Virus record (IMG/VR): IMGVR_UViG_3300048629_000034
Location: 32,001 to 96,000 of that record
Reading direction: 5' to 3' (one strand)
Length of the DNA: 64,000 nt
Source of the DNA: a virus
Lineage: Duplodnaviria; Caudoviricetes
Notes under the pieces: generated by a model
Database searches by the model: none
The model's input: the letters and a program-made list of their open reading frames with translations, nothing else
Told to the model about the DNA's origin: nothing
Program-made: the position numbers and the translations under genes
Shown here: positions 286 through 63,032 of the stretch, one piece after another
Layout of the letters: every line of letters starts with the position of its first letter
Position numbering within the stretch: the stretch's first letter is position 1

Positions 286-626
286 GAATCTCCTATATTC
301 TCTTTTGTGTGATAGATTTGCTATCTCTTATTGCATAATACTACTACAATAATTCTTAACTATGACTTATATTCTCATATACATATTTGAGCCCACACTA
401 GGTATGGACTCTCATATACACATTAAGGAGAAAAATGTTATACGATCTTACCATATATTAAGCTGTATCACTTTTGTCCTAAAGCTCTACTTGATCTCAT
501 ATTGAACCAATGAGTAGCTTTAGGATCTACATATTATACAAAAGGAGAAAATGAAAAAAATGTTGAGAGCACACACTCTCGTTCGGCATATGGTCGCACC
601 GTACATCTTTACACACATTCTTTATG

Positions 627-935
627 CTACATTTTTTTAGCACAATCCTTGTATGTTTTCCCACTCATTGCTCTACTCATAGTAGAAGTACCAACTCCCA
701 TTTTACTAGCTAAGTCAGATACACTAACACCCATTTTGAATTGATCTCTGCACCATATGATTATCTTGCAGTCCAATTTCTTTTTATTTGTAGTTTTTCT
801 TTTTACAGCTTTGTCTGCATATGTAGCTGTTGGCTTAACAAATTTTGAATCTACCTCAGCATTGAATGGACCACGAATTGATTGTGATATTCTAGCTATA
901 ATGTATTCGTACATGCTTTTTATTGTATCGAACAT
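627..935 (-). CDS. Small helix-turn-helix DNA-binding protein
   Basis: C-terminal GVSVSDLASKMGVGTSTMSRAMSGKTY is HTH-like; AGGAG RBS. Confidence 0.55.
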   Translation of the reverse strand: MFDTIKSMYEYIIARISQSIRGPFNAEVDSKFVKPTATYADKAVKRKTTNKKKLDCKIIIWCRDQFKMGVSVSDLASKMGVGTSTMSRAMSGKTYKDCAKKM

Positions 936-962
936 ATTTTCTCCTTTTTTATTTATTGTATT

Positions 963-1601
963 CTATCTAACTTTTAATAAGTTTTCAAGTCTATTATTCC
1001 ATCCATTCAAATAACTTATGTATTTATCCGGATTGCTCGCTACTAATTTAGCTAATTCTAACTGCATATGACTAATGAAGTATGCCTCGAACAGGTATCC
1101 ATATGTATTATTTATATCAACTGCACCAGCTACATTAGCTAATCCAAGTTCAGTTTTAGAACCATACGCACCATCTACTACTAGTTTTGAACCAATAGTA
1201 AACTCATTGTCTATGAATTTATTTACAGTAGATTGTATTGATTTGATTGTATTCTTTGGACTTAGTGTATATGCAGACATAACTGCAACCACTGATTCTA
1301 CTGGATACATATCGATATGTATATTATAGTAGTACTCGTCATAGAACTCACTAACCAATTCTTTAACTATTTCCACATCTATATTGTTATTTATATCGTC
1401 TATTGTTAGTTGGTTCCATTCGTTTGAGTTTAAGTGGTATCCTAATTCATTTGCAATCTGATCTATGTATTCGAATATCTTGGCTGAACTATGTTGTGTT
1501 CTATATATCCCATATGGAGCTGTGATATCACTCTCAGTTGGTAATCTGTGAACTTTAGTTCCTTCTGCTTTGGCTAAGTGTTCTAGTATTTGTTCTGTCA
1601 T
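963..1601 (-). CDS. Endolysin, GH108/lysozyme-like with C-terminal peptidoglycan-binding motif
   Basis: N-terminal HLAKAEG and TAPYGI, internal LVVDGAYGSKT, C-terminal YLNGWNNRL; next to holin-like genes. Confidence 0.65.
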   Translation of the reverse strand: MTEQILEHLAKAEGTKVHRLPTESDITAPYGIYRTQHSSAKIFEYIDQIANELGYHLNSNEWNQLTIDDINNNIDVEIVKELVSEFYDEYYYNIHIDMYPVESVVAVMSAYTLSPKNTIKSIQSTVNKFIDNEFTIGSKLVVDGAYGSKTELGLANVAGAVDINNTYGYLFEAYFISHMQLELAKLVASNPDKYISYLNGWNNRLENLLKVR

Positions 1602-3227: not shown

Positions 3228-4268
3228 TTAATTCCTTATTAATATTTTATTGTTGATTCTTCGATTGGCGAAAATCATTCTTAGTTTGTAGGTAGATATC
3301 GTATTCCATAAATTAAATGAATCTGTAATTATTGACCACCCATTATAGGCTGCAACCTTACCCTTTAGCTGTCTATCTCCAAAATTTTCATGATTATTCG
3401 TAATGTCTCTGAACGTCTTTACCATATTTTTCTTGATTTTGTTTCTTATCATAGTATATTGATGAAAGAATCTGAACCCAAGAAAGTCTACTCCTCGCTT
3501 ATTTACTTGGTATACCTGGTAATTGCCTTTTATTGATAACTTTAATTCTTTATCCAAATACTCCTTTATTGTATTAAATACATCATGAAGATATTCTTTG
3601 TCGTCATGCAATATAACTATATCGTCACAATATCTAAAATAATGCTTTACACCAAGTTTTTCTTTGACCCAATGATCAAAATAAGTTAAGTATAGATTAC
3701 CGAAGTATTGGCTCATATAGTTTCCAATCGGAACACCTTTAGTACTATCTATTATTTCATCAAGCAATGTTAATGTGTCTTTGCATTTAATCTTTTTACG
3801 TATTATTTGTTTTAGTATATCATTGTTTATGCTAGGATAGAATTTTTGCACATCTAGTTGTAAGCAATATACGGGTTTATCTTTTCTGATTATTCGTTCT
3901 ATCTTCTTTTTAGCCTTATGAACACCTCTTCCTCTTATTGATTGGTAGGTGTCAGATATTAGTGTTTTAAACCAGATTGGTTCAAGCACTTGCATTATGG
4001 CATGATGTATAACTCTGTCAGGAAAATATGGTAGTTTATATATTTCTCTTTCTTTACCTTTGTCGTTCTTTATGAATATCTCATATTGACTATTAACAAA
4101 GGTCTTACTTTTAAGCATTTGGTGTATTTTTTCTATGTAGAAGTTTTCGTTTCGGTTGAATCGCATAACTTCTTTATAGTGCTTTTTACCAAGCTGAGCT
4201 CTTTTATGAGCTAATCGTATATTATCTATATTGTATATTTTTTCGTATAAATTATTGTATCTTTTCAT
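3228..4268 (-). CDS. DGR reverse transcriptase
   Basis: Start MKRYNNLYEKI; KxRxI, PDRVIHHA, LDVQKFYPSI, GVPIGNYMSQYFGNLYL (DGR-type SQ), YFRYCDD, GVDFLGF. Confidence 0.95.
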   Translation of the reverse strand: MKRYNNLYEKIYNIDNIRLAHKRAQLGKKHYKEVMRFNRNENFYIEKIHQMLKSKTFVNSQYEIFIKNDKGKEREIYKLPYFPDRVIHHAIMQVLEPIWFKTLISDTYQSIRGRGVHKAKKKIERIIRKDKPVYCLQLDVQKFYPSINNDILKQIIRKKIKCKDTLTLLDEIIDSTKGVPIGNYMSQYFGNLYLTYFDHWVKEKLGVKHYFRYCDDIVILHDDKEYLHDVFNTIKEYLDKELKLSIKGNYQVYQVNKRGVDFLGFRFFHQYTMIRNKIKKNMVKTFRDITNNHENFGDRQLKGKVAAYNGWSIITDSFNLWNTISTYKLRMIFANRRINNKILIRN

Positions 4269-4384
4269 TGTCTTATCACCCCTGAATCTTCCCGTTAGGT
4301 ACCAATACATAATAGAGCATAGCAGTGTGTTTTACCAAGAGGTAAGGGAGCAAATCGTTAAGTATTTGTTGTTTTAATTGATAA

Positions 4385-7218: not shown

Positions 7219-9366
7219 CTAATTACCTGCGCCTCCAGATCCTGCCGTACCCATCGACGCTCCAGACTGGCTAGCTTCGTTGAACATGTATTGGATTTTA
7301 CAAACTTTACCGTCAAATTCACCAGCAGTAACTACATCTAAATTAATAGTAGTTCCTGAGATAGATGCAACATTAACTGCTACAGCTTCAGAATCATTGT
7401 CACCAGCATAAACGATAACTTCTCCGAAGATTACACCGTCAGCGATTGGAGCATAAGTAGTAGTAATTGAATCACCAGAAACAGTTACAGAACCATCAAG
7501 ACCTTCTAATTTCATCATTGGAATCCATAAGTCAGCATATTTTTTAGCTTCTAATTCTGCATATAATACAGAACCAACAGTAGTGTTATCACCTTCGATT
7601 ACGTCAAGTCTTAAGTCAAGTGCATCATCAGCATCTTTTCTAGTAGTCTCTTCAGCAGTGATAGCGTCTTTTCTGTCTTGGATCTCAGTGTCAACTTTAG
7701 TGTCGATAACACCTTCAGCTGTAGTTGCTCTAGACTCTTCAGCATCAACATCAGCGATTCTGTCAGTAGCTTCTTGAGAGATAGCATTAGCATTAACTAG
7801 CTCAGCAGCTTTAGCTCTAGTTTCTTCAACTAGGATGTCGTAAGCAACAGAACCAACAGTTTGATCATCAGCATTTAATGTAGTGATAGCTGCAGCATTA
7901 GCAACTTCAGCAGCAGTAGCTCTAGTAATCTCAGAGTTTAATGCAGTTGTTTGAGCTGTATTGTTTGATGTAATTGTACTATTTAAAGTAGCAACTTCGT
8001 TTGTAACTCTAGTATCAACAACACCATCAGCAGCAATGTATGCAGCAGTCATAGCAGTATCAGCAGCTTTGTAGTCTGTATCTAATTGAGTAATTGCATT
8101 AGTGTTAGCAACTTCAGCATTTCCAGCTCTAGTAGCTTCAGTAGAAATTAATCCCTCAACTCTAGTGATTTCAGAACCTCTAGTAGAGATTTCAGAATCA
8201 ACTTTACTTTCAATTCTAGTTTCTTCACTAACAGATCTATTTTTCTCAGCAGTAACTAAACCAGTTAACTCAGCGAAATCTGCAATTTTTAAGAATGATT
8301 TAGAAGTAAATCCAGATGGCACATAATCTCCACCTTGATCTGGCAATACAACATATACATCTTTTTCAGAAGTTACGTAGTAAGCTTGACCAGCAACTAA
8401 GTCGCCTTCAACTAATGCATCGATTCCCGCTAAATCAGCAACTGAACCTTTCCAAGAAACACCAGCAACTAGTGTACCTTCAACAGCAGATAATCTTCCA
8501 GATAATGCAGAGTCAGCATTTGTTCTGTTAGTTACTTCAGTAGATAGTGCAGCTTCAATAGCAGTCTTGTTACCAGAAACAGTAGAAGTTAATGCAGTGA
8601 TTACACCATCAACTCTAGTAATTTCAGTTCCTCTATCAGTAACCTCAGTAGCAATAGCAGTAGCATTAGTAGCTTCAGCACCTTCAGCTCTTGTTTTTTC
8701 AACAAGTACAGCAGCATCAGCATAAGCTTCAGTAGCAGTTATAGCAGCGATTCTATCAGTTTTTTCAGTATCAACTTTACCGTCGATTCTAGTTTCTTCA
8801 GAGATAGCTCTAGTTTGCTCAGCCTTAACAGCATATGCAACTGAACCAGCAACAGTATCAATATCATTTAATAATGCGATTTCAGCATCAGTAGCAGAGA
8901 TTTCACCATCTAATTTTGTTTCAATTCTAGCTTCTTCAGCTTTTGCTCTTGTCTCTTCGTCAGCAGTAGCAGTAGATGAACCAGACGCTAAGTTTGCAAT
9001 ATCATTTGCCAGTACAGCTTCTTGAGCAAGTGCTCTGTTTTCTTCAACTAAAATAGCAGCATCTCTATCAGTTACTTCTGTAGAAATAGCAGTACCTCTG
9101 TCAGAGATTTCTTGATTTAAATTATCTTCTAATTTTTTTAATGTAGCATTTGAAGCAGATACTCCACCTTTTAAGTCTACGATAGCTTGTGATCTATCAG
9201 CAACTTCTTGGCTAATACCACCTTGTAAATTCTTACCAGCTTCTGCAGATAATGGTTTACCAGTTCCACCAGTAGTTACATCATTTACGATGTCAGAGAA
9301 GAAAATCTTATCTTTTAGTGAAGGTATCGTTCTATTACCAGATTGTCTAATTTTATTAATTGCCAT
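7219..9366 (-). CDS. Long coiled-coil tail fibre or stalk protein
   Basis: 715 aa Ala/Thr/Glu-rich with many ExxRAxAxE and ExxDR repeats; LSAEAGKNL motif; TVGSV knots. Confidence 0.75.
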   Translation of the reverse strand: MAINKIRQSGNRTIPSLKDKIFFSDIVNDVTTGGTGKPLSAEAGKNLQGGISQEVADRSQAIVDLKGGVSASNATLKKLEDNLNQEISDRGTAISTEVTDRDAAILVEENRALAQEAVLANDIANLASGSSTATADEETRAKAEEARIETKLDGEISATDAEIALLNDIDTVAGSVAYAVKAEQTRAISEETRIDGKVDTEKTDRIAAITATEAYADAAVLVEKTRAEGAEATNATAIATEVTDRGTEITRVDGVITALTSTVSGNKTAIEAALSTEVTNRTNADSALSGRLSAVEGTLVAGVSWKGSVADLAGIDALVEGDLVAGQAYYVTSEKDVYVVLPDQGGDYVPSGFTSKSFLKIADFAELTGLVTAEKNRSVSEETRIESKVDSEISTRGSEITRVEGLISTEATRAGNAEVANTNAITQLDTDYKAADTAMTAAYIAADGVVDTRVTNEVATLNSTITSNNTAQTTALNSEITRATAAEVANAAAITTLNADDQTVGSVAYDILVEETRAKAAELVNANAISQEATDRIADVDAEESRATTAEGVIDTKVDTEIQDRKDAITAEETTRKDADDALDLRLDVIEGDNTTVGSVLYAELEAKKYADLWIPMMKLEGLDGSVTVSGDSITTTYAPIADGVIFGEVIVYAGDNDSEAVAVNVASISGTTINLDVVTAGEFDGKVCKIQYMFNEASQSGASMGTAGSGGAGN

Positions 9367-12149: not shown

Positions 12150-15100
12150 TTAAACATAGCTTGAGAATGCGTTGGTTCTATTTCCTATACTTTTTCTTCT
12201 GTTCGCAAACAGTCTCATGCCTCCAGATGCCTGTGTCCCTACATTATGACCAGCATTTTTTGACATCTCTTGACCTGTCATGCCGCTCATTGGGTAGTTT
12301 ATTTGCATCATAGCTATTTGACTAATCAAATCTGGCCCATCATCATGTCTAGAATTATGAACTATGCATCCGTTAACTACAAAGTTGCTGTAACCAGGAA
12401 CCTCTATATCGTAGACAGGCTCATTCTTTCCTGTGTTTTTTATTTCTTCTATAGAAACTAGATCTGCATTCGACAGAGCAATATTTTTGTCGAATAGTAT
12501 GTCCCATAAATTTTTTTCCACATTCTCTACATTCGCATTCGAATTTAATTGTTTTTCTAGCTTCGTCAATACATATTTTTCCGCAATATTTAGTTTTGTT
12601 TGAAACTGGTGAGACAAATTTCTTTCCGCAATTCTTGCACTCTCTTTCTTCTGACCTAAGTAATCTTTTTTTCTCATTATGTATTTTTGTACATTTTGGA
12701 TTGTTGCATAAAATTTGGTTATGGCTTTGTTGCATAACCTCATTTGAACAGATACTACACTTGATAACTTGAAGCGGTTTATAATCGATATTGAATCTAA
12801 GTTTCTTTGCTTTACTTCGACACGATTCTCCGCAATATTTTGCATCGTTTCTTGAGTTTTTGTGCATAATAAACTCTGTTCCGCACCATTTACATATTCT
12901 GTTGATCTTTCTATTCTGTTGTTTTCTTGCAGATGCTTTTTTTCGGTATGATTTGTCTCTGGCATAGAAATGATCATTTGATCCTTTGTGTATTTTTTGA
13001 TGCTCTTGTCTGGTAAGAATGATGAGATTACATGCTTCATTGTTGTCTTTATTTTCGTCAACATGATGCACATCAAACCCTCGCGGGATTGATGTGCCAG
13101 TTTCTCTTTCAAACACTTCTCTGTGTAACCATTTTCTTTTTCCGTTAATATTTCTTGTGGATTGATAGTATCCGTTTGGTTTTTTTCTCCACTTGAATCC
13201 ATATCTTTCATCTTGCATATACTGTTCCTTATCAATACATCCCAATGCCTCAGATCGTCTACTCTTACATAACCTCTTGCTGTCATAACCCTATGACAAC
13301 CCGTAAGCCTCATAATTAGTCCATCTGCGGTAACTAGTTCATATATCTCTTTATTTCCAGTAAATATAGCATTTTTTGGTTTAACATATGCTGAATACGA
13401 CCCATTTGTTGCTAGTACCATATCCTCATTAGTAATATCAGTTATATACTTTTCTCCGTCAATACACTTAACCAAAGTATCAGCAGAGAAACAACCGAAG
13501 CTGTCGTGTTTTATCATCATCAACTGCTCCATAAGTACTTTCATGTCAGGAATATCCTGAAGCTCTCTCGGAAACCATATCTTTCTGTTCTGGAATAATG
13601 GTAGAGTCATTCTGAACCTCCAGTGCTTATTACCACCTTCCAGTCTACTTGTTATCCCCTCAGAGCCAGCTTTACTACCTTTGGCTCTAGCGAATGTGAA
13701 GAATATACCTTTTCTAGGCATTCTCTCTCTAACTGCTTCTAGGTGAGCTCTTTGGTTCCCATCTAATTCTATACCAACTTCTATGTATCTAGCACCAAGT
13801 GAAGTATATAGTTGCGCAAACCTAAATAACTCATCGTATTGATCTTCTATTGTACATTTTCTAAGCGACAAATCCAACATAAAGTGATCCATATTACTAT
13901 TTACAGCCCACACAGCTATACCACTATAATCACCATTTAGATCATTACTTGAAGTAAAATCTGTTGTGATATATATATTGTAATCACTCATTCTTTTTTG
14001 GATATCTACTCTATTGAACCATTGTATGTAGTTCTGCTGTAGCATTTTATCTTCAGATGTACTTGTTCGCAGATAATGCTCTTGCATTAGTTTCTTCATT
14101 GGTTCTGGATTTCCTGCATCTTTGGCTCTTTGTGCTCTTCGATAATCCCTCATACAGTTCGAGAAGCTATGTCTGTCTGGCCATACTGATACAAATTCAT
14201 CCTCTACCATATCTTCTCTTATTGATTCACCTCTAGGGAACACAACTGGAAGCCAAGTACCTTCTTCAATTCTTCTTGTAACGCTATCATTCTTTCCATA
14301 TGGAGTACCAATTATTACTGCGAAGTTTTTATTATTATTTAAACCAGGAAGCACATCGGCTTCAATAGTACTTTCTATGCTTGTCATTATTGATTTACTT
14401 GCTGCAGCCTTCTCGCCCTTTATCAAATCGTCAAATATTGAGGCATCCGGCCTAGCTAGTCCTGACCTAGTTCCTCTAACCCCAGCTTCAGCTCCAACGC
14501 CACCCAATGTGAATGTTCTAAGCATTCTGCCTGGAACAGTATCTTCTGACTTTCCTTGTTTTATTACATGGTCTTCATATGCTCGTAATTCTGACTTTGT
14601 TATTGGCTTTCTAACAAACAATACTTCATTTACATTTAGTTTCCATGACTCGAAGAATTGTTGCATATATGGACTCTCTAGGAATACTTGCTTAATCATC
14701 CCCATTGTGGTTTTTACATTATTCTCCATTGTGTCCCCTACATATAGCATGTAGTTTATTTTTCCGAAACCTGGAAGTTTCCCTTTAATTGCTGCGAACA
14801 TAAATAAATATGTTACAATACTGCTCTTGCTAAATTCCCTGCAAGACAATATTGCTATTCTGTCATTCATTCCAAAGTAATCAATATTACGAACCATAAA
14901 GAATGGCTGAACATTTGGTTGTCTGAATATACAATCAACGAAGAAGTAATGTGGCAAACTATTGCTGTTCTCTGGTTCTCTACCTAGTGCCATACGAATG
15001 AATGCCATAAACTCTATGGCATGGTCACTTGGGATATACCATTTTAACTTTAGATCTATATTATCTAACAACTTATCCATAGTTATTATCTTATCTTCGA

Positions 15101-15212
15101 ATGCTTTCAATACTATTCCATCAGAACCAACCTCCCACTTGTGATGAGGGTCGACTCCATCTGGATATATTGCAGCTACACTATTTGGTAGCTTATCTGC
15201 TGGTATAAGCAT
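12150..15212 (-). CDS. terL: Terminase large subunit, N4 gp68-like, intein-containing (about 640 aa after splicing)
   Basis: YIPSDHAIEFMAFI, Walker A SCREFSKSS, GVRG, Walker B IFDD, IGTP, nuclease YITTDF and C-terminal HDD. Confidence 0.9.
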   Translation of the reverse strand: MLIPADKLPNSVAAIYPDGVDPHHKWEVGSDGIVLKAFEDKIITMDKLLDNIDLKLKWYIPSDHAIEFMAFIRMALGREPENSNSLPHYFFVDCIFRQPNVQPFFMVRNIDYFGMNDRIAILSCREFSKSSIVTYLFMFAAIKGKLPGFGKINYMLYVGDTMENNVKTTMGMIKQVFLESPYMQQFFESWKLNVNEVLFVRKPITKSELRAYEDHVIKQGKSEDTVPGRMLRTFTLGGVGAEAGVRGTRSGLARPDASIFDDLIKGEKAAASKSIMTSIESTIEADVLPGLNNNKNFAVIIGTPYGKNDSVTRRIEEGTWLPVVFPRGESIREDMVEDEFVSVWPDRHSFSNCMRDYRRAQRAKDAGNPEPMKKLMQEHYLRTSTSEDKMLQQNYIQWFNRVDIQKRMSDYNIYITTDFTSSNDLNGDYSGIAVWAVNSNMDHFMLDLSLRKCTIEDQYDELFRFAQLYTSLGARYIEVGIELDGNQRAHLEAVRERMPRKGIFFTFARAKGSKAGSEGITSRLEGGNKHWRFRMTLPLFQNRKIWFPRELQDIPDMKVLMEQLMMIKHDSFGCFSADTLVKCIDGEKYITDITNEDMVLATNGSYSAYVKPKNAIFTGNKEIYELVTADGLIMRLTGCHRVMTARGYVRVDDLRHWDVLIRNSICKMKDMDSSGEKNQTDTINPQEILTEKENGYTEKCLKEKLAHQSREGLMCIMLTKIKTTMKHVISSFLPDKSIKKYTKDQMIISMPETNHTEKKHLQENNRIERSTEYVNGAEQSLLCTKTQETMQNIAENRVEVKQRNLDSISIINRFKLSSVVSVQMRLCNKAITKFYATIQNVQKYIMRKKDYLGQKKESARIAERNLSHQFQTKLNIAEKYVLTKLEKQLNSNANVENVEKNLWDILFDKNIALSNADLVSIEEIKNTGKNEPVYDIEVPGYSNFVVNGCIVHNSRHDDGPDLISQIAMMQINYPMSGMTGQEMSKNAGHNVGTQASGGMRLFANRRKSIGNRTNAFSSYV
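12354..13493 (-). mobile_element. Intein (380 aa) in terL
   Basis: Starts CFSADTLV; block B LRLTGCH-type (MRLTGCHRV); block F/G VYDIEVPGYSNFVVNGCIVHN followed by Ser; inserted just before the catalytic HDD. Confidence 0.92.
12421..13218 (-). CDS. HNH homing endonuclease with four Zn-finger repeats, nested out of frame inside the intein
   Basis: LHREVF...VHHVDENKDNNEACNL...EHQKIH then four CxxC...[Y/L]C repeats; own AAGGA RBS 7 nt before the ATG at 13218. Confidence 0.88.
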   Translation of the reverse strand: MQDERYGFKWRKKPNGYYQSTRNINGKRKWLHREVFERETGTSIPRGFDVHHVDENKDNNEACNLIILTRQEHQKIHKGSNDHFYARDKSYRKKASARKQQNRKINRICKWCGTEFIMHKNSRNDAKYCGESCRSKAKKLRFNIDYKPLQVIKCSICSNEVMQQSHNQILCNNPKCTKIHNEKKRLLRSEERECKNCGKKFVSPVSNKTKYCGKICIDEARKTIKFECECRECGKKFMGHTIRQKYCSVECRSSFYRRNKKHRKE

Positions 15213-22171: not shown

Positions 22172-22450
22172 AAAAGTAACTGAATAAGTAACCGAAAGCT
22201 ATAGCAAATATATATTATAGCTTTTATTTCTTGTAAACTACCACAGTTAACATCTTTATAGCTAATAAATATAACAAAAAGAGGGTAAAAGTAACTGTAT
22301 TTGCACAATTATATTCCAGTTACTTTTTATACAATTACAGAGGTACGCAGTTCCACTTGTAATACTATAGGGCACTGACTTTTTGGTAAGAACATGTTAA
22401 CTGTGGTGGCTAGAGTACCGAAAGCTATAGCATGTTCCAATTATAGCTTT
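22172..22450. promoter_or_regulatory. Palindrome-rich control region upstream of the ParB-like gene
   Basis: Two AAAGCTATA-N12-TATAGCTTT palindromes; a 14-bp inverted pair ACCACAGTTAACAT; AAAAGTAACTG direct and inverted copies. Confidence 0.6.
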
Positions 22451-22697
22451 TGCAGGAATATAAATAGTATTATTTTATATTGCATGGAGTCAATAGTGTG
22501 CTCATCCGCTAACGCTACGAGCACATTCTCCATCACAAATAGGAGAGAAGGAAAATACATAAAACTAGCATAATTTCTTTCCTTCTAAAAAGGACAACCT
22601 CCACAGAGCCCATCTGATGGGGCCTACACGACTATCCACGACCAACTTTGCCACAACAACCTGGCCTATACAGACTCTATATAAAAGGAAGCACAAA

Positions 22698-23089: not shown

Positions 23090-23260
23090 TCTTTGCCACT
23101 CCTACATTAGGCAATTATATCTAGATAACGGAAATTATCCATAACATAACAATAGTAGTTATGGAATATATTTATCGAACCAATGACGACTCCTACAATA
23201 GTTGTTGGTTCTATTAAGTATATATCGCATTATATACAAATCAAATACAAAGGAAACATT

Positions 23261-23551: not shown

Positions 23552-23666
23552 ATTCATAGAACCAATTATCAGTATTGGTTCTGTTGAGTTTATTATATAT
23601 CGCATAGTAAACCAAATCGTTTTATGTATCACAGATAGTGAGAACCAATCATCCAAAGGAAACAAA

Positions 23667-28217: not shown

Positions 28218-31200
28218 AAAGACAATTGTTAGTTAAAGTTACGCAAGAAATATATGATGTTAGAAATAGAATAACTAAAGAGCTTAAATCTCTACCTAAT
28301 GGGCAAAAGATGAGAAAATCATACATAGATACATTAGCAATGATGATGTCAGAAGTTGTATGTTTAGATGACTCTCTTGTGGATATGCATAATACATTCG
28401 AAAGTGACAAAGTTATTGCATTTGATGTTGATGAAGAGATTATTGATAAAGCAAAATCAATAAAAGACTACGAAGGAATTAGCATATCAACTCAATACTC
28501 ATTAGGAATAGTGGAATTAAATAAATTAGATATGGATAGAATTATAGACATTATATATTCAACTATAATTAAAAAAGAAGAAGTTGAAGTGTGTGCAAAC
28601 ACTACATCTAATGATGAAAACGATCAAGTATATATTGGTTCTACTAATTTAATAATAATATCAGATATGAAAGAAGCAACTAAACTTGTAGCAAGTTCGG
28701 ACTATATTATTCATGGAGTATATATAGAGACATGATTGTATTACAGAACCAACAATTAGAACAACAACAAATAAGGACCAAAGAATGACGCTAAACAAAT
28801 TCATGAAGATAAACATGGAGACACTAGAAGAGATATACTCTCTGAAACAACCATATAACCAGTTACCATTTAAACAATGGTGCGAAAATATATTTAACTA
28901 TCCATCGGAAAAAGCTAAATCTTTCGCTGAAACAAATTTCAATATAGCATGGGGGGATAAGTAATGTCAGTATTTAATTCACCACCATCTGCACCATTTC
29001 TTATAAATTTAATTGAGATATATTCTAATGAACAAAAAGAATATGCAATTCACTCAGAACCATACATAGTTTATACTAGAGTAATTAACGATCTATCTAT
29101 GATACTAAATGAAATATACAAGGATGTAGGTGGATATGATGTGGAGGCAGTAATATGCGACAAGTAGTATTAGAATTTAACTCTGGAATCTTGACAGAAT
29201 ATTTTGCAAATACTGTAAGATTTCATGGTGAAATATCATCTGAATATTACAACAAATTAATTGATAGACTCGCTAATCTTGGCTATGATATAATCGAAAG
29301 ACATGTGTAGAAAAAGGAAATATGAATGGTAACAATGCATGACAAGGACAGCTTTGAATACAAACTTATGCTTGCAAGAAAAAGAAGAATGGCAGTTAGT
29401 AATTATTTATTAAGTGAAGATTTAGATGAATATGGCGAATACTCACACAAGAACTTAACTCGTCTTATTGAAAAAATAGACGCAGAGATAAAATATCTAA
29501 AGCCTATATGTATAGAAAGATATAGAAACAAAGTATAAGCTTAGTATTATTTATGTATTATATTGAAAAATAAACAATAAAAAGATAAATAATGAATAGA
29601 GAATTAAAAGATCAAAGAACATATAAGATACTCATATTTAAGAAATTAATAGAGGATTTTATATCCCTAATTGATCCAGAAACCAAACACAAACTATATA
29701 TAGAGTACACTAATGGTATTGATGAAAAAAACACAAACAATTTGTATGCACTGTCAAAGAAAATGAATTACCAAAACTGGTCTGAATATATACTATACTC
29801 AACCATGCTAGGTAGGATTTTAAATACAGAATTAACTCAATATCTACCTAAAGTTCTAACATTCGAGGAGATAGCACTACTCTGCAAGACTGGAACAAAG
29901 CAACGTGCAGAACAGTTAACAAAAGGTGCCATAGCGAAGATTAAACATAGTAAAAATTTTGACATATTATCGAATTTTAAATTGAGCTTTGAAACAAGGT
30001 ACAATTGTGAACAGATAAAAGACGTTGATGGCGAACATTAACTAGTAGCGGGCGCAGTGGATATTACCCGACTATTAAACGTAATTTGTTTATTTTATTT
30101 TTCCAAAATATAGTAGATATGCGACAATTAATATCGACTACATTACAATTCTAATAGGCATTACAATTGTAAAACTCTCATGAACCAACAAAAAACTATA
30201 ATAAGCAGTGTCTTTAGCTATTCAATACTTATTGTAGTTCTATTTTGGTTCATATTTTAAATACTCCATATAGACATGCACTCAATATCATACAAACATA
30301 TAAAGGGGTGCCTTGTACTAAAATTGCTCCCTGATTTACTATCATAGAAATGCGCACTCTGATACGAGTGTATGTCTATATGGATCACTACAAATAACAA
30401 AGGAAATAAAAATGTCAATATCATTAGCTAAACTTAGCAAATATGTAGGAGAAAATTCTAATTATTTTGCATCTATGAAAACAACATCAATTGAAAAGTT
30501 TAATTGGATCTTCTCGTTCGATACTAAGAACCAAATCACCTCAATAAACATGGCTAGAGACTTCCAGGAAGAAACTTTTAGAATGATATATGAACATTAT
30601 AATTCGTTCTCTAAAGACACACACTATGGAACATGGTTAGGAAAGTGTGGTATATACTCAAATAATCTAGATCAACAGGCAAGAAATAGAATAATTTCAA
30701 TATCAAGAGGGGAAGCATTATCTATGTTTGGACATAGGTGGAATTTTACGAAAAGCTGTTTAGAAGAAAGAAAACATATAGAAGCGAAAATAGATAATAT
30801 TAGAAATAATATTTCAGTAGAAGGAACCAATATATCATTCAACATAAAGGAGTCGGATCAGAAACTAATTCTTTATGTATTATCCAATGCGATGGATGAA
30901 TTGTCAATAGATATACAAAAGGGAGAAAACAAATGACAGATAGAGAATTAGCGTTCAAATGTAATTTAGATGGAAACTACTTTACTATAATGAAATATAG
31001 CAATATAAATAAGTATAATTATTTTACAAACAGAGATAAAAATAAATACAACTCTGTGATTAAAGCATCAGAGCGAATTGAAATAATGTATCTAGCTGCA
31101 GAAAAACTATATTATATGTTCGATTCTGAATATAAATTATCAAAATGGATGCAAAAACACAATATAACTAACGGTTTCAATCATCAATCTGGAAACAGTT

Positions 31201-31313
31201 TAGGGTTAAGCATATTTAGAGTAAAGGATGATGGTTACTTTTCTACAAAATATCCGTTTATTATGAAGCTTGAGAAGATATATAAAGCAATGGAAAGTGA
31301 AAATATGCTATAA
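28214..31313 (+). other. Cluster of hypothetical ORFs (28214-28735, 28964-29167, 29326-29538, 29592-30041 sigma-region-4-like HTH, 30412-30936, 30933-31313)
   Basis: Co-oriented ORFs; 29592 has LTFEEIA...TKQRAEQL...AIAKIK; 30412 and 30933 share a similar N-terminus (NYFxxMK). Confidence 0.55.
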
Positions 31314-31336
31314 TAAAGCAATTATACGCACACAAA

Positions 31337-31610: not shown

Positions 31611-31636
31611 ATAACTACAAATTAAAAGGAATTAAA

Positions 31637-32248: not shown

Positions 32249-33463
32249 AAATAAAACAAACGAAATCGGACAATTATAAGTTAATATTAAGTAAACGTGA
32301 GTTATTATTATTACAAGAAATCTTAAATAACAGTGATGTAACATTAGATGAAGGTTTTGATTTATGCATCATAAATAATGAATTATGCCCAAACGAAAAA
32401 TATGAAAATGTTATGTTAGCAGAGGAAAAATCTACACGAATGTGGAAACAAATTAAAAATATAACAAGCATATAAATAAAAATGCTGCCCTGATATTCTC
32501 TAGGGTAGAATTGTTTCGAATGTGAATATTCGATGGACAATACCTGAGGCTGATGAAGTATAGGGACAGCCCATGACACGAGGTGAATCGATGAAACTGT
32601 GTCGTACTAGAGTTGCATATGACAGTATTTTAATACTAAGTCAGAGTGATGACTGTGTTATATGTTCTAGTAACTTAAATAAAAAGGATTATGTATGAGA
32701 AGTAATGAATGGCCATCGTGCGATGAATTAAACGGTGTTGGTGGGATTTAATATTAATTAAGGATATTATTGATTCAATTATAGGAGCAATGTATTGTAA
32801 TTGGATCTGTAGTATTCTTAATTAATATTAAAAGGGCAATAAATGAATCAAGTAAAATTAGAACATTTATCATCGAAAAATGATAATCAATATTTCTGGA
32901 TGATTTCAAATGAAAATCTTCAGACAAAAGTGATGCAATATCATAATAATGAATACACACCAAATGCTTATTTTGGTGACAATCAGTTATGGTGTCATGA
33001 AGATAATAATCAAGCGATGGATAAATATGATATTTTTGGACCATTATTACCACCAGAAAGAATGATTGAAAATTCTAAAAAAGAAAGGAAAATAAATGAG
33101 TAATAATTTTAATATTATATTTACTAGTATCGTGATGCCTACAGTGTTTATAGTGCTTGTGTTTACTAGTGAAACATCAGACTCTGATGATACGTTCTTA
33201 ATATGTTCAACTTTATGGGCTGTCACAGGGGTTATTATGGGGTTCATCGATAGAAATTTTGTAAAATGATAAAAAATGAAAAATTCAAATTAACATTATT
33301 CATAATATACACAATATTATACGAATGTTTGATTTGGGGTCTTGTTGCAAGCTCAATTTATTACTTGGAATGGAGCGAATGGACTGTTGTCATTGGAATA
33401 TTAATGTCAGGAGTCCAATTAGACCCATCTTATTTCGGACTTGATTATGAAATAAAGGAATAA
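32245..33463 (+). other. Small hypothetical ORFs (32245-32475, 32843-33103, 33266-33463) and intervening DNA
   Basis: Short co-oriented ORFs, some hydrophobic. Confidence 0.45.
32485..32673 (+). ncRNA. Candidate multi-hairpin RNA
   Basis: GC-enriched intergenic tract with consecutive stems CTGCCCT/AGGGTAG, TCGAAT/ATTCGA, GGCTG/CAGCC, GACAC/GTGTC, TACTAGA/TCTAGTA. Confidence 0.4.
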
Positions 33464-33539
33464 TGTGGTACAATTAATTAACATTTTAGATATTTACATA
33501 ATTGGATTTTTATTTACTTTACTGTTTTTAGAAATAATT

Positions 33540-34300
33540 GTTGCCTGATATTTGTGCGTCACTCTGACCTAAACTGGAGACTAATCCACTGAAGTCTTTA
33601 AAGTCGCTGAGGTAACCAATCCGTCATCCTATGGCTCATCCATATTAAAATTTTTGAAGTAGTGGGCGACTTCAAGCGAGCTACTACCATAAGCAGTGTA
33701 ACAAACAGTTAGTCTCTACTAGAACGTATTGTACGGTCTATGTAAGCTAACCTTTTTATACATCTATAATTTGTGTGATCAAATAGCTCAATGGATAGAG
33801 CGCTCATAGTTCGCTTGCAAGCATTATGAGAGATTAGAGTTCGACTCTCGTTTGATCAACTAAAAGACAGGAGCCAGCAATGTAAGTATCAGTTTGATAT
33901 GAATCACTGGAAACCCTACACTAGGGGAGATAGTCTTTAAAAATAAAATACAGTGAGTTAGTTACGGGATAAGCTCCGTACACGGTTGGATATTTTATAC
34001 CAAGAATAGAAATATTGCTATTAGTGAATTAGTAGTAAGTGTACATGTTGAAAGTTACACAATTCGCTAGACAGGTTACGCTTACCTGCCGACACCGACC
34101 CGTTGGTTTATATAAGACGACGGTCTATAAAAGAACCTTATTATTGTGTATTAGATTGATGCACGCGCAACTAATTGTGTGAATTTTAGAGGGAGAAGTC
34201 TAGCGAGACTTAACACCAAAGAGTATCCTTGAGATCAATAAAAAAGCTAGTAGAGTCTAATCAACTTTATGTATTCGGTCTCCTTTTGTCGGAGGCCAGT
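33540..34300 (+). ncRNA. Large ORF-free structured RNA region
   Basis: About 760 nt without ORFs, higher GC; nested pairings GAGACTAA/TTAGTCTC, CACTG/CAGTG, AAGTCGCT/GGCGACTT and many local hairpins. Confidence 0.5.
33777..33858 (+). tRNA. tRNA-like element with elongated anticodon arm (no assignable anticodon)
   Basis: Acceptor GATCAAA/TTTGATC, D arm GCTC-AATGGATA-GAGC, TTCGA loop with weak T stem, no CCA; preceded by TATAAT. Confidence 0.5.
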
Positions 34301-34302
34301 AT

Positions 34303-34378
34303 AAACAGTATAGCGTAATGGTTGGCGTGCTGAGTTTGTCTCAGAGTTTATTGGTTCAAATCCAATTACTGTTTACCA
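34303..34378 (+). tRNA. Atypical tRNA, possibly Gln(TTG)-derived
   Basis: Acceptor AACAGTA/TACTGTT, T arm ATTGG-TTCAAAT-CCAAT, CCA; anticodon arm CTGAG-TTTGT-CTCAG has a 5-nt loop. Confidence 0.55.
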
Positions 34379-45559: not shown

Positions 45560-46804
45560 ATGACATACAACAGTAAGCAGATACAAGCAATAAATATGGC
45601 ATCAAGCCTAAAACATAAGGTGTGCTACATATCAGGAGCTCCAGGAACTGGTAAATCTACATGCCTTAAACAAATCATTGAGAACATAGGAGCTAATGGT
45701 TCTGAAATAGTTGTAATGGCTCCGTCTCACAAAGCTAAACAAGTAATTGAAAAAACAATAGACGATAAGTCACTTGAGTATATGACAGTGCAGAAATATT
45801 GTGGACTTAAACCAAAAATAAATAGTAAAACAGGAATCCAGACTTTTGTAGAAGAGTTTAATCCGAAGGAACAGACATGCGATGTTGCAGTAGTAGATGA
45901 AGCTAGCATGTTGACGCAGAAAATGCTAGACAAAGTTATGAGAACAAGCAATCATGTAATTCTATTAGGAGACATTCATCAGCTTGAAGCAATAGAGGAT
46001 CCAATACCTGAACAAACTTTGTCAGATATACCAGTAATAGAATTAACTGAGCAGATGAGACAGAAATCAATCCATTCTGATCTGTATAAAGTTATTCAGA
46101 TTTTTCTTAAGCGTAAGAATAACAATACAACTCGTACATTTAATTTTGATACTGAGTCTGATGGATCTATCATTGTGCACAAAGATCTAAGCGATTTTAT
46201 AGATACATTTATTGAATCTAAATCTACAAGCAAGAGAATCATTGGATTCAGAAATGTATCAATTGACTATATTAATTCTGAAATTAGATCAAAACTATCA
46301 CTACCTGATTATCCAATAGTTGGAGATATTATAGTACTTCAGCAACCTATAACTAGACGAGGGAAGAAGAATAATAGAGTAGTTAAGGAGATTGTGTATA
46401 ACAATGGGGATGAATTAACAATCAAGAAAATCACACCAGTCGATAATAACACTGACTATCCAACATTCATGATGGCAGAATGTATCAGACACGGAGATAT
46501 GGAAACTAGAGAAATCAAAATACCATATGACTCAATCAAGTTTAATAACAATCTGCAGAAATTAGCAAATTCAATCAACAATGGAACAAACAAGAGATTA
46601 TGGACAGAGAAATATTATCCATTGAAAGAATCTGTAGCCCACTACAAATTCAACTACTGTGGAACTACACACAAAGCTCAAGGAAGTACTTATGACGAAG
46701 TATATATCTTGCATAAGGACATGATTGTAGCCGGAGATAATTATAACAGACTTATGTATGTTGCAATTTCGAGAGCTAAGACTGTAGCACATATAAAGGA
46801 TTAA
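45560..46804 (+). CDS. Dda/RecD-like SF1B DNA helicase
   Basis: GAPGTGKS, APSHKA, VDEASM, GDIHQL, LTEQMRQ, TTHKAQGST, YVAISRA. Confidence 0.92.
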   Translation: MTYNSKQIQAINMASSLKHKVCYISGAPGTGKSTCLKQIIENIGANGSEIVVMAPSHKAKQVIEKTIDDKSLEYMTVQKYCGLKPKINSKTGIQTFVEEFNPKEQTCDVAVVDEASMLTQKMLDKVMRTSNHVILLGDIHQLEAIEDPIPEQTLSDIPVIELTEQMRQKSIHSDLYKVIQIFLKRKNNNTTRTFNFDTESDGSIIVHKDLSDFIDTFIESKSTSKRIIGFRNVSIDYINSEIRSKLSLPDYPIVGDIIVLQQPITRRGKKNNRVVKEIVYNNGDELTIKKITPVDNNTDYPTFMMAECIRHGDMETREIKIPYDSIKFNNNLQKLANSINNGTNKRLWTEKYYPLKESVAHYKFNYCGTTHKAQGSTYDEVYILHKDMIVAGDNYNRLMYVAISRAKTVAHIKD

Positions 46805-47987: not shown

Positions 47988-48011
47988 TCAACACACAGAA
48001 GGAGAACCAAT

Positions 48012-52097: not shown

Positions 52098-53045
52098 ATG
52101 TTGCAAACAGCAAATGATGCACCAAACTTTACAATAGTGTTGCCAGTTGATTGTCAGGCAGATTGTGTATTTTGCTCATGGAGAACTAGCAATCAGGACA
52201 AACAGAAAATGGACGATGATAAATTTTTCAAAGCAATTATTCATACATTGAATAATTTGCCATCTAATTGTACAGAATTAACAATTAGTGGGGGAGAACC
52301 AACAACATATCCATATTTAGAGCAAGTATTAAAACTAATACAACTACATAAGAAAGAGAACATTAAAAAAGTAGTATTTACTACAAATGGACAGAATCTA
52401 TATTCCTGGGCTAAGGACAGTCTATTTTTAGATGTAGTGGATTATGTAAACATAAGCAGACATCACTATATCCAAGAAGACAACGACAGAATAATGAGAA
52501 TACGAACTATAAATTGGAATACTATATGTTCAGTATCGGATAGATTATCTAAAGCTGGAATTAGAACCAATATCAATTGTATATTAAGTACATCTGTAAT
52601 GAAAGAATACGATTATGAATTTTTAGCTTGTTTCATAGATTATGCTAGAAATCATAGTATTAATTCTATAACATTTAGAAAAGATTATGATGATGGATTC
52701 GGAATGCATTATCTGGAACAGGAAATACAAGAAACATATAAACCATTGCATATTGGAGAATGCCCTGTATGTAGAAAATCTAAATACCTTATTAATGGTA
52801 TGGAAGTATTATTTACTACATCAGAATTTGAACCAACAGCATACTATGGATCACAATCTATATATGAATTTATACTTCAACCTAACGGAAATCTAACATC
52901 AGATTGGGAAGGAAATAGTACAGTTGAGCTAGATACGAAACCTAAACTTAAACAATGTACTGATAATACTTCTAATCTGAATCTAACTTCTAGAGGATAT
53001 TTAGCAGGCTCTGGTAGAGGATGTGGAAGCAGTGGATGTAGATAA
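52098..53045 (+). CDS. Radical SAM enzyme
   Basis: CQADCVFC, ISGGEPT, TTNG, NISRHHY; Gly/Cys tail. Confidence 0.9.
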   Translation: MLQTANDAPNFTIVLPVDCQADCVFCSWRTSNQDKQKMDDDKFFKAIIHTLNNLPSNCTELTISGGEPTTYPYLEQVLKLIQLHKKENIKKVVFTTNGQNLYSWAKDSLFLDVVDYVNISRHHYIQEDNDRIMRIRTINWNTICSVSDRLSKAGIRTNINCILSTSVMKEYDYEFLACFIDYARNHSINSITFRKDYDDGFGMHYLEQEIQETYKPLHIGECPVCRKSKYLINGMEVLFTTSEFEPTAYYGSQSIYEFILQPNGNLTSDWEGNSTVELDTKPKLKQCTDNTSNLNLTSRGYLAGSGRGCGSSGCR

Positions 53046-57531: not shown

Positions 57532-57595
57532 ATAACACTTAGAACCAAACAATACTGACTAATAGCATATGTTTGGTTCTACACAATAAAGGAGA

Positions 57596-59623: not shown

Positions 59624-60879
59624 AATATTTTTAACATTGATGTTCTGTGTATCTTTATATGCAGAACAAACAACAATACATTTAAATAAAAATTACTATG
59701 CTAAAGATATATCATCTTTTGGATTTTCCAATGATTACTATAAGTTAATATGTATAAATAATATAATATATATTGATGGTATTAGACAATTAGCGGTATA
59801 TATTGATTACAGAACACTAAAACCCGTTAGATGTAATTTAAAGGAGAAATAAATGAATATTAGTAAAGAATTATTATGTGAGATATCGGATATTGAAAAA
59901 AGTACAATACAAAAAATTCACTTTGAAGATAATCAAATAGTTGTGAATTGTAGTAGATTCGATAGTACCGGAGTTACTGGAAATCATTGGACAAGACGTA
60001 TCAACATATATGAATTACAACATAAAATTAAAGAGTGGGCTTTTAAAAACGGATACAATGTTTTATCTGGATATGACCAAGATGATAATATATGGGCATT
60101 AATTAACCATATCTATGGTGAAGGTGGGTGTCAAGCTCAAGAAGAATTTAATGCTCCAACTGAATTTGAAGCAGTCGTTAAAGCTGCAGACTATATTTTA
60201 GAGAAACTACAGGAAAAATAAAATGGAAACTAAATGTCCCAACTGTAAACAATATCAAGAACTAAATAATCACAAAATAAAAAAAGCTGCAAAGTTAAAC
60301 GAAGTAAAACAATTTTCTTGTGACAACTGTGGATTTTCAACAAGAATAATGTGCAAAATACAAGAAAAAGATAGAATTGTTGTATTTTATGCAATGTCAG
60401 ATATCGAAATCAAACAAAATTAAAAGGAGACACAAAGATGATAATTAATTTTAAACAAGTAGGTGGATCTTCACATGATTTCATGAATGATGTTGCAAAC
60501 AAACTAGGTACAGAACCAACATATGAAAATCTAGAGAGGTATTTATCTTGGTATGAGGATGGAGATACAATGGTATATACATTTAAAGCAGTATTGATCT
60601 CTAGTAAAGAGGAACAATCTAGACTAGACAATATTGACTTAGTTGACAGAATAAAGGAGATATCAAATGACTGATACAGATGCAAATACACATGCAATGA
60701 ATGAGTACTTAAACAAACAACAGGAACGAGAAGAAGCTTTTGATAATCTATTAAGTGAAACTCTGTCGGACAGAATACAACTAGAGGGCATAATTGAAGA
60801 AATTAAACTTACAGCTAAAGACTATAGTGGATATGACTTCACAGAAGACATAGAAGAGATGATAAAGGATATGTTGTAA
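59616..60879 (+). other. Five small hypothetical ORFs (59616-59852, 59853-60221, 60223-60423 Zn ribbon, 60438-60674, 60667-60879)
   Basis: Tightly packed ORFs; 60223 has CPNC and CDNC. Confidence 0.55.
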
Positions 60880-60917
60880 CGCATAAGCAGACATATTAAA
60901 CAAGAAAGGAGAACAGT

Positions 60918-63032
60918 ATGAAAATACAGGCAATGATAGATGAACTATGCACTATGGGTAAACGAAAGAATGATCCATTAATGATTGAAACAATATTATA
61001 TTACTTTGGTTCTATTATGTTAAATAAGTATAAGCTCCGTAAGGGATTACCTGGAATGAAGCCATATGTGCGTTATTATACAGTATTTTTTGGAAACTCA
61101 GGATTAGGAAAATCATTTAATACTAAGCAAATAGAGAAACTGTGTGGATTAAATACATACAGCGAACTTATGCATAATTCATTTATATCTAAACTACAGA
61201 AGATGCCAGACAGACCAGACGGAATTGAAACTACTATGCGATACATACCTAAATCAGTTACAATTGGTCTTGAGGGATCTAAAGAGGGATTATTCAGTGT
61301 TGTTGAAGCTCAGGCTTTTAGTGACTTTGGTTCGTTGAATCTTATATCCGAGGAGTTTGGAGAGGCCGTATCATCATCATCAGAAATGATGTCTAAACTG
61401 AAGCAATTATATGATACTGAATATCAAGCGAAAGTTGTAAAAGGTAATAGCGAAACTGGAGGAATGAATCACGATGTAAACAATATTATATGTAACTTTA
61501 TGGGACTTGGATCTAGAGAAGGATTTGATGTAGAAGCAGAAAAGGAATTATATAGAATAGTAACATCTGGATTGTATAGACGATCAATTATTATTGAATC
61601 TAACTTGTATGTTGAGAAGAACGAATTCGAAACAGATTTCGTGAAGACAGCACTATGGATTGAAGACATAAATAAGATATTCAGAGAAGATGCAATTGCT
61701 AGAGTAGATTCATCTACAAATTATATGATGGATCGAGAATTTGACTATGAAAATGACTATATTGACTATATAGAGCAAATAGATGATGCACTAGTTGATG
61801 ATGCGGTAGATGATAGACTAAATAAATTTAAGCAGTATTCAACTGGATCTCTCGAATTAATTATTGATATATCTCATATCATTGCATTCTATGAGGGCAA
61901 GCTTGTTGTTACATCTGACCATCTGGCTCAAGCATATAATTTCTTTACTCGAACCAGAGAGACTGTAATCGATACGTTCTCGCCTAAACTACCGTATAAG
62001 CTAATGTATGAACTTCTGAAGAAGAAGAATAATCTAACCGTATCTGAGATGTGTGAATTAGAACCAAATATACCATCAGCAGCAACTAAAATCAAAGACA
62101 ACTTATCTTTATTGGATGAATTATGTTATAGACGTGATGAAGTGTTGGTTCGGCATGAAGGAAAAGTATTACGATTCTCTATTGAACCATTACCTGAGAC
62201 AGACTTAAATAAACTTAGGATATCTGTATCAAACGATGGAAAGATGGAGAAAGCAGTTAATTTTGTACCATATGAAATCAATTGGAGCGACCTAAAGAAA
62301 GTATGTATATCTGAAAATATTGATTCATTTTGTTTGTGTCACTTTGATGATAGTGCACAAGCTCCAGATGGACACCGTAAGCGTGACAAATTCATCGAAG
62401 GACAGAATGTTATAGCATTTGATATAGACGACGATAAGCTATCTATAAAGGACGCTCAGGCACTATTGCATGAATACACTTACTTCATTTATACAACTAA
62501 GTCTCACCAGAAGGAGAAGACTGGAGCTGCAGCATGTGACCGATACAGAATTGTAATTCCTACAAAGAACCAATTCTATGTGTCACCTGAAGCACACAAG
62601 CAGCTATATATCAATCTAGAGGAGTTTTTGTGCATACACAATAATGATACACAAACACGAAATGTAAGTAGACTTTGGTTCACTAATTCAAACAATTCGC
62701 AGACGTTCGAAAACTCTGGTGAACTATTTGATGTGACACCATTTATACCTGATACGGATAAGTCTGATAAGTTCAAACAAACCTTTAATCAAGCAACTTC
62801 TAACGTTGATTTTGATACAATGGACATACGAGAAGCTGGAATGCTTAAGTGGTTTATAGCCAACACATCAAATGGAAATCGACATCACAATTTAACCAAA
62901 TTGTACTACTTTTATCGTGACCTTGGATCTAACAATATCGATCAGAAGGTAGCAAATGCAAATGCATTATTATCGGAACCAATGAATGATAGAGATATGA
63001 AAAATATATATTCAATAGGGAGAAAATCATAA
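60918..63032 (+). CDS. P-loop plus AEP-type primase fusion (N4 gp43-like)
   Basis: GNSGLGKS and SEEFG in the N-half; FDIDD, YTTKSH, RYRIVIP and GNRHHNL in the C-half. Confidence 0.75.
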   Translation: MKIQAMIDELCTMGKRKNDPLMIETILYYFGSIMLNKYKLRKGLPGMKPYVRYYTVFFGNSGLGKSFNTKQIEKLCGLNTYSELMHNSFISKLQKMPDRPDGIETTMRYIPKSVTIGLEGSKEGLFSVVEAQAFSDFGSLNLISEEFGEAVSSSSEMMSKLKQLYDTEYQAKVVKGNSETGGMNHDVNNIICNFMGLGSREGFDVEAEKELYRIVTSGLYRRSIIIESNLYVEKNEFETDFVKTALWIEDINKIFREDAIARVDSSTNYMMDREFDYENDYIDYIEQIDDALVDDAVDDRLNKFKQYSTGSLELIIDISHIIAFYEGKLVVTSDHLAQAYNFFTRTRETVIDTFSPKLPYKLMYELLKKKNNLTVSEMCELEPNIPSAATKIKDNLSLLDELCYRRDEVLVRHEGKVLRFSIEPLPETDLNKLRISVSNDGKMEKAVNFVPYEINWSDLKKVCISENIDSFCLCHFDDSAQAPDGHRKRDKFIEGQNVIAFDIDDDKLSIKDAQALLHEYTYFIYTTKSHQKEKTGAAACDRYRIVIPTKNQFYVSPEAHKQLYINLEEFLCIHNNDTQTRNVSRLWFTNSNNSQTFENSGELFDVTPFIPDTDKSDKFKQTFNQATSNVDFDTMDIREAGMLKWFIANTSNGNRHHNLTKLYYFYRDLGSNNIDQKVANANALLSEPMNDRDMKNIYSIGRKS

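Follow-up and report, generated by a model that had tools for sequence, protein, structure and literature searches.

The locus and its place among N4-like phages

We analysed a 64,000-nt stretch of DNA (the window) from the virus IMGVR_UViG_3300048629_000034 (Caudoviricetes), comprising bases 32001-96000 of a single 113,115-bp contig, with a focus on the heptamer GAACCAA and its complement TTGGTTC, which are dispersed through it. This phage is labelled G000 in comparisons, and positions are those of the window unless the genome is named. A blastn search with 7.9 kb of its DNA against cultured phages gave no nucleotide match. Residues 2724-3450 of gp50, the giant virion RNA polymerase of coliphage N4, matched a 1675-aa open reading frame (ORF) at genome positions 108031-110382 (tblastn, E 2.9e-13). 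The word and two replication genes relevant to its interpretation lie as follows:

504..62982, both strands: dispersed GAACCAA copies (n=100), about 1 per 640 bp, in coding and intergenic DNA
45560..46804, + strand: superfamily 1 (SF1) RecD/Dda-like helicase, homologue of N4 gp37 (Pfam AAA_30 and UvrD_C_2; tblastn with N4 gp37, 4e-15)
60918..63032, + strand: gp43-type primase-helicase of 704 aa, the proposed reader of the word (PHROG 2135 DNA primase, E 1.9e-54)

In tblastn searches the matches of the primase were almost all to Schitoviridae, at 23-26% identity, and an N4 gp43 query gave 6.8e-20; a gp43-type primase is a hallmark gene of exactly the N4-like family. In the primase tree, G000 groups with uncultured contigs in a deep sister clade, and a long branch lies between it and the classical Schitoviridae. 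Having homologues of gp50, the gp43-type primase and the gp37-type helicase, the phage belongs to the N4-like phages (Schitoviridae in the wide sense).

A heptamer enriched inside and between genes

The window holds 100 exact copies of GAACCAA/TTGGTTC (66 on the + strand and 34 on the - strand), compared with 6.42 +/- 2.42 copies (maximum 13) after dinucleotide shuffling. A preliminary description of this DNA had estimated roughly 95 copies where 6-7 would be expected, and the exact counts bear it out. Over the whole genome there are 167 copies, 93 on the + strand and 74 on the - strand. The GAACCA core is strict and single-base variants of the heptamer sit at background, except that T and G are weakly tolerated at position 7 (A in 100 cases, T in 19, G in 14 and C in 5). 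The sole flank preference is for a preceding A, found in 55 of the 100 copies (AGAACCAA, 55 vs 2.4 expected). One of the one-base neighbours, GAACCTA, is strongly depleted (4 vs 19.8 expected), and the remaining 20 occur at 0.5-1.75 times expectation.

Relative to a gene set from a simple purpose-made caller (125 genes, 87% coding), the copies occupy all three sense and all three antisense frames, and 35 lie outside genes or at gene edges; the reported placement in both coding and intergenic DNA is thus correct. Strictly intergenic copies number 33 against 1.6 expected, with a density of 2.3/kb between genes vs 1.3/kb inside genes.

The preliminary description had also named a result that would undo its claim, namely the loss of the enrichment under a codon- and dipeptide-preserving shuffle. 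We shuffled synonymous codons within each gene, which preserves every protein (so every dipeptide) and the codon usage of the gene, and obtained 27 sense and 9.9 antisense copies, compared to 75 and 57 observed; shuffling codon order gave 12.7 and 4.9. When the whole genome was rebuilt under the null that preserves proteins and codon usage, 39.1 +/- 5.1 copies were found vs the actual 167, and the excess therefore does not vanish as a codon or dipeptide artefact would. The word itself raises the Markov and codon nulls, so that enrichments given relative to them err on the low side. The effect can be seen in a single codon pair: where Glu-Pro is followed by a codon starting with A, GAACCA is used 39 times and GAACCT once, despite an overall CCA:CCT usage of 518:235. 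The dipeptides themselves are raised (Glu-Pro 84 vs 57, Gly-Ser 175 vs 126). The GAACCAA signal acts on the DNA, bending synonymous codon choice and even dipeptide content.

The word across N4-like phages

Related words are over-represented in other N4-like phages (expectations for the top words are from an order-2 Markov model). In coliphage N4, GAACCA occurs 220 times vs 86 expected and GAACCAG 110 times vs 26, and GAACCAG again exceeds the codon shuffle in sense (37 vs 9.8) and antisense (31 vs 9.9) orientation, with 8 intergenic copies vs 0.5. Vibrio phage pVco-5 carries the variant RAACCAA (AACCAA, 215 vs 95 expected), Acinetobacter phage XC38 has TAAACCA (76 vs 21 expected), and two further genomes have CTGGTTC (G006, 62 vs 6) and TGAACCA (G007, 117 vs 18). 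In the relative G001, GAACCAA is found 29 times in 35 kb, compared to 5 for the reversed control word. GAACCA is not enriched in T7, lambda, T5, T4 or Staphylococcus phage K (z -1.7 to +0.3).

We then considered the set RARCCA (R = A or G), that is GAACCA/AAACCA/GAGCCA/AAGCCA, in 47 non-redundant N4-like sequences gathered with the primase alignment. The set reached z > 3 in 24 of the 47 and stayed at z <= 1 in all 13 control phage sequences. We conclude that GAACCAA is the lineage version of a word with the core (G/A)A(A/G)CCA, which N4-like phages (Schitoviridae and their deep relatives) keep by selection. The word is independent of the host, its core being alike in phages of E. coli, Vibrio, Acinetobacter and uncultured hosts, which argues against a host-tuned signal such as a host Chi or an uptake sequence. 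It is also old, spanning the deepest split of the primase tree. A literature search returned no paper reporting the word in N4-like phages. Taken as a whole, we regard it as very probable that GAACCAA is a selected, phage-intrinsic and host-independent DNA word.

Density, site turnover and strand polarity

When sequences of 27-56% guanine plus cytosine (GC) are binned by GC fraction between 0.25 and 0.60, RARCCA keeps a density of 4.0-4.7/kb throughout (Spearman rho -0.07, p = 0.62). Its Markov expectation, by contrast, climbs with GC from 2.3 to 3.6 per kb (rho 0.71, p = 3e-8), and reversed control words track their expectation. This constancy points to a required site density. Because enrichment compensates for base composition, GC-rich members of the family look unenriched.

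Between relatives that are 69-93% identical, word sites are conserved above other 6-mers with odds ratios of 1.7-5, for example 46% vs 16% (p = 1e-7) and 93% vs 72% (p = 2e-4). Between G000 and G001, none of 20 sites is shared in 11.6 kb of aligned orthologous coding sequence, though both genomes are enriched. Individual sites are therefore weakly selected and exchangeable, and it is their density rather than fixed positions that is maintained.

In G000 the excess over the codon null amounts to 48 copies in sense and 47 in antisense orientation, from baselines differing 2.7-fold, which suggests that each strand has its own requirement for the word. Spacing per strand is 1.2-1.5 kb in G000 and 1.0-2.8 kb over six genomes. 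The sense strand of the early and middle genes is mildly favoured in both gene arms in five of these six genomes, whatever the direction of the genes, with strand ratios of 69:41 in N4, 110:50 in pVco-5, 93:74 in G000, 36:26 in G006, 45:31 in XC38 (whose record is deposited in reverse orientation) and 60:57 in G007. This polarity reflects a process directed along the genome and not transcription. Density homeostasis, the tests of site turnover and the comparison of strand polarity are new in this analysis.

Inverted pairs, hairpins and position relative to genes

Close pairs of GAACCAA prefer the convergent order GAACCAA..TTGGTTC, with 19 such pairs within 120 bp vs 7.7 expected. An excess of convergent pairs was found in G000, G001, G006, G007 and pVco-5, and none in N4 and XC38. 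Some pairs form hairpins, and the word also stands directly ahead of start codons. The features concerned are:

23177..23230, + strand: GAACCAA..TTGGTTC hairpin followed by TATATATCGCAT, the first of two tandem modules (z -2.8)
23559..23605, + strand: second hairpin, AGAACCAAT..ATTGGTTCT with a 9-bp stem, and TATATATCGCAT, directly 3' of a stop codon (z -4.1)
30182..30251, + strand: long intergenic hairpin with outer stem ATGAACCAA/TTGGTTCAT (-12 kcal/mol, z -4.9)
57542..57579, + strand: hairpin AGAACCAAACA..TGTTTGGTTCT in the spacer separating the GIY-YIG gene from the next (z -5.5)
48004..48010, + strand: GAACCAA between Shine-Dalgarno and ATG, aaggaGAACCAAtATG
27677, 45553 and 51045: further copies between Shine-Dalgarno and ATG, arranged as at 48004
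1606, - strand: copy between Shine-Dalgarno and ATG, arranged as at 48004
34351..34357, - strand: incidental TTGGTTC copy in the T arm of tRNA-Gln (34303-34378)

The four hairpins had been named in the preliminary description and are real, with z scores for the DNA fold of -2.8 to -5.5. So are the copies it had seen between ribosome-binding site and ATG: genome-wide, eight genes have GAACCAA between Shine-Dalgarno and ATG, all in sense orientation. The two tandem modules open the rightward (early) gene arm, with TATATATCGCAT lying 10-15 nt after each hairpin, and this exact 12-mer has no further copy in the genome. The modules may serve as early promoters or as terminator-promoter cassettes. 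Inverted pairs of an abundant word may have been secondarily recruited as stems of intergenic hairpins. Neisseria uptake sequences are likewise recruited into intergenic stems. A second type of hairpin, ACCGAAAGCTATAGC..TATAGCTTTT, occurs in two copies (22185-22232 and 22410-22452) in the divergent intergenic region between the gene arms.

The spacing of GAACCAA is random-like, with a coefficient of variation (CV) of 1.0 and a largest gap of 4.3 kb compared to a random mean maximum of 3.8 kb, and no significant clustering was found (the densest 700 bp contain 6 sites, P = 0.39). Genes with N4-like homologues carry the word at 1.49 per kb vs 1.20 per kb in genes without (p = 0.22). Four stretches had been described as free of the word, as expected for recently acquired DNA. 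They are indeed empty; their reading as recent acquisitions is not supported, because random placement would leave as many gaps of 2-3.5 kb and the density in genes hardly depends on whether they have homologues. One word-free stretch, 31000-34300, lacks both the heptamer and the hexamer GAACCA over 3.3 kb (about 7 hexamers expected) and ends at the tRNA-Gln; as a younger insert it is a borderline case.

A primase as candidate reader

The protein that we favour as reader is the gp43-type primase-helicase. Its N4 counterpart, gp43, has the Pfam domains PriCT_1 (1e-9) and DUF3987. A structural model of the G000 primase built on 26 aligned sequences had a mean predicted local distance difference test (pLDDT) score of 84; its C-terminal helical bundle, at residues about 614-703, aligns with the PriCT_1 of N4 gp43. 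The N-terminal half resembles MCM-type AAA+ helicases (Foldseek, about 1e-6), and the central domain matches the archaeo-eukaryotic primase (AEP) domain of the PrimPol of cyanophage S-2L (6zp9_A, Foldseek 3.8e-5). A sequence search of the PDB with a four-sequence primase profile gave no match, and folding of the C-terminus from a single sequence was of low confidence (pLDDT 34). By these comparisons the protein is a primase with an AEP domain and, as its predicted template-reading module, a helical bundle.

Template words of primases are known from several systems. The gp4 primase of T7 reads the template word 5'-(G/T)(G/T)GTC-3' and makes primers ACCA, to which a primer with (G)AACCA at its start would be similar. 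In pRN1 ORF904, PriCT-1 corresponds to the helical bundle (PMC5862659). This bundle binds the template word GTG and prepares initiation (PMC8718748, citing Boudet 2019), and for the AEP/helical-bundle enzyme of phage NrS-1 the template word 5'-TTTGGTTA-3' has been mapped (PMC8718748, citing Zhu 2017). NrS-1 PrimPol has a further word, 5'-GTG(A/G)-3'. TTTGGTTA has TTGGTT in common with TTGGTTC and TGGTT in common with TGGTTTA, the complement of TAAACCA in XC38. The words of T7, pRN1 and NrS-1 are, like GAACCAA, short, asymmetric and needed on both strands, and the readers in pRN1 and NrS-1 combine an AEP primase with a helical bundle (PriCT-1), as would the proposed gp43-type reader. These known words differ in having only 3-5 bases (8 in NrS-1) and in being barely or not at all enriched in their own genomes, whereas the N4-like word has 6-7 bases, is enriched 4- to 15-fold and shapes coding sequence.

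We therefore propose, with a probability of roughly 40%, that the gp43-type primase-helicase encoded by the phage itself recognises the word on its template and starts there. On the lagging strand, 5'-TTGGTTC-3' would then be the template sequence and (G)AACCAA the first bases of the primer. By chance, a word of 6-7 bases would be too rare in AT-rich DNA, at about 1 per 20 kb per strand here, and selection would lift it to about 1 per 1.2-1.5 kb per strand, which is the spacing of Okazaki fragments. Such a need would also account for the fading of enrichment with rising GC.

Several observations weigh against this proposal. A literature search on the specificity of N4 gp43 found nothing relevant. 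The words of the T7 primase are barely enriched in T7 (GGGTC 94 vs 57, TGGTC 141 vs 125), and NrS-1 has a single TTTGGTTA in 37 kb. Spacing of the N4-like word is irregular and random-like (CV 0.77-1.05), the strand bias is modest at about 60:40, and the excess of convergent pairs (19 vs 7.7) is not predicted by priming. The low-GC N4-like sequences L046, L067, L097 and G005 have a gp43 homologue and no enriched word, and a distant siphovirus outside the N4-like family with a small AEP/PriCT-1 protein has no such word either. The word follows the primase tree loosely, with 7 changes vs 12.8 for shuffled labels; as any vertically inherited gene would cluster likewise, this clustering of variants cannot single out the primase.

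Other readers are possible, among them the gp37-type helicase, which is part of the conserved replication set, or another conserved replication, recombination or transcription protein of the N4-like family. The preliminary description had listed a range of readers, from a partition or DNA-coating protein to a primase. Its notion of a phage-borne signal at the level of DNA holds, and a primase site is the best candidate on that list. ParB-like and helix-turn-helix proteins are poor ones, since they are specific to this genome and lie outside the gene set shared by the family; the ParB/GIY-YIG pair matches only G001 and G005.

Should the gp43-type primase be the reader, this would be the first clear case of a replication enzyme whose long recognition word has reshaped the genomes of a whole virus family, with codon choice, dipeptide content and spacers tuned to a density of sites that does not vary with base composition. 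Lagging-strand initiation in the well-studied model phage N4 would become directly accessible, metagenomic contigs of N4-like phages could be recognised by a simple signature, and there would be a design rule to follow when these phages are recoded or engineered. Whichever protein reads the word, a conserved and so far undescribed interaction between protein and DNA is indicated in this much-studied family.

Alternative explanations

A conserved phage protein that binds double-stranded DNA and coats, condenses or organises the replicating or packaged genome could also demand a set density of sites, and would account for a word density that is constant whatever the GC, for exchangeable sites, for the near-equal excess in both orientations and for the intergenic enrichment. 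We think this unlikely, as no family-wide candidate protein was found, a reader blind to orientation predicts no consistent strand bias, and nor would it explain why the excess is just as large in the orientation that coding disfavours 2.7-fold. A little more doubtful is a Chi-like signal for the phage's recombination and end-processing machinery (gp42 exonuclease, gp37 helicase, Sak4-type annealase and single-strand-binding protein), which would switch degradation to recombination-dependent replication or protect the ends of phage DNA. The word is short and asymmetric and its bias has a polarity along the genome, the N4-like family conserves its helicase and recombination genes, and the complement TGGTT is GT-rich, as are preferred recombinase substrates. 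Chi sites (such as GCTGGTGG of E. coli, read by RecBCD) are likewise over-represented asymmetric 5-8-mers in genic and intergenic DNA, with weakly selected, exchangeable sites and strand polarity. However, Chi is specific to a host and its nuclease, RecBCD or AddAB, and shared with the host genome, whereas the N4-like word follows the phage family and has the same core in phages of E. coli, Vibrio and Acinetobacter, so that it is not the Chi of the host; it also differs from the Chi of E. coli. Its 60:40 bias is weaker than that of bacterial Chi, its density is several times above that of known Chi words of 7-8 bases, and we know of no phage-encoded Chi reader. Uptake sequences (Neisseria DUS, Haemophilus USS) offer another parallel, since they too occur about once per kb on both strands and in all frames, are commoner between genes and have inverted pairs recruited as hairpins after genes. 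They belong to competent bacteria and spread via uptake bias; the N4-like word is enriched family-wide in lytic phages of unrelated hosts, to which that mechanism does not apply.

The hairpins bring transcription into view. N4-like transcription is templated by single strands, and the word might act in it as a cue for loading, pausing or termination (of the virion RNA polymerase, RNAPII or single-strand-binding cofactors), in which case its working form would be the inverted pair. Promoters of N4-like phages are built on hairpins (PMC4496689, PMC9163698), and both the excess of convergent pairs in G000, G001, G006, G007 and pVco-5 and the stable hairpins just 3' of stop codons or ahead of promoter-like boxes fit such a role. 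It is nonetheless improbable: more than 80% of copies are single, inside genes and on both strands, the strand bias ignores gene direction, N4 and XC38 have no excess of pairs, and the known promoter hairpins of N4 and LUZ7 have 3-4-nt loops and different sequences (PMC9163698). Equally improbable, in our view, is a family-wide 'self' label read by a conserved N4-type protein to tell phage from host DNA, for example so that only phage molecules are replicated, recombined, spared by nucleases or packaged; if true, it would mean that a sequence-based self-recognition system is written through N4-like phage genes. The preliminary description had favoured a self-marking site. What survives of this is a selected phage signal at the DNA level, and nothing found points to a mark separating phage from host. 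A DNA modification target, or another self-mark of that kind, is very unlikely. A mark could be made of a word so much more frequent in phage DNA than chance predicts, and among the unusual enzymes encoded by the genome is a radical-SAM protein, but no modification enzyme shared by the family is known (none was searched for systematically) and the word is no commoner than chance in GC-rich relatives, where it could not mark self. Restriction-like targets, moreover, are normally avoided rather than enriched. Least probable of all is that the word has no function and was spread by biased repair or gene conversion through the phage replication machinery, a molecular drive comparable to very-short-patch repair. 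The strong depletion of the neighbour GAACCTA would fit such a drive, yet it mirrors the choice of CCA over CCT in the same context, and the other 20 neighbours are not depleted to that degree. Moreover, as GC and with it the chance density go up, enrichment declines to match, as expected of a need and not of a drive, and conservation of the sites exceeds background.

Other words and neighbouring genes

Other words are over-represented elsewhere. The palindrome GCCGGC is 5-9-fold over-represented in L070 (20 vs 2.3), L079 (52 vs 10.6) and L088 (74 vs 10.2), and is thus a different word in some N4-like lineages (GC-rich or mid-GC loci). The palindrome AGTACT is about 3-fold over-represented in the 27%-GC phages G002 (256 vs 86) and G004 (184 vs 57). 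G002-G004 were considered as relatives with other words and set aside, having only a 715-aa fibre-like protein in common with this phage; their GGACC words are explained by collagen-like GPQGPEG repeats.

That fibre-like protein (7219-9366, - strand) is a coiled-coil protein with repeated RAxAAE motifs, 44-62% identical in the otherwise unrelated G002, G003 and G004 (27% GC), and looks like a mobile structural module. Among the structural genes there is also a 360-aa ORF with a reverse-transcriptase domain (3228-4310, - strand; Pfam RVT_1, E 2.3e-15), which has a 31%-identical homologue in G001 and could be part of a diversity-generating retroelement or a defence-type reverse transcriptase. 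A large-terminase-like ORF (12150-15212, - strand) is split by an intein (Pfam Intein_splicing, E 2.8e-16), and a 274-aa ORF (12421-13245) overlaps it in a different frame. The radical-SAM protein (52098-53045, + strand) has weak similarity to QueE-like and anaerobic ribonucleotide reductase activase families, and could bear on nucleotide or DNA modification.

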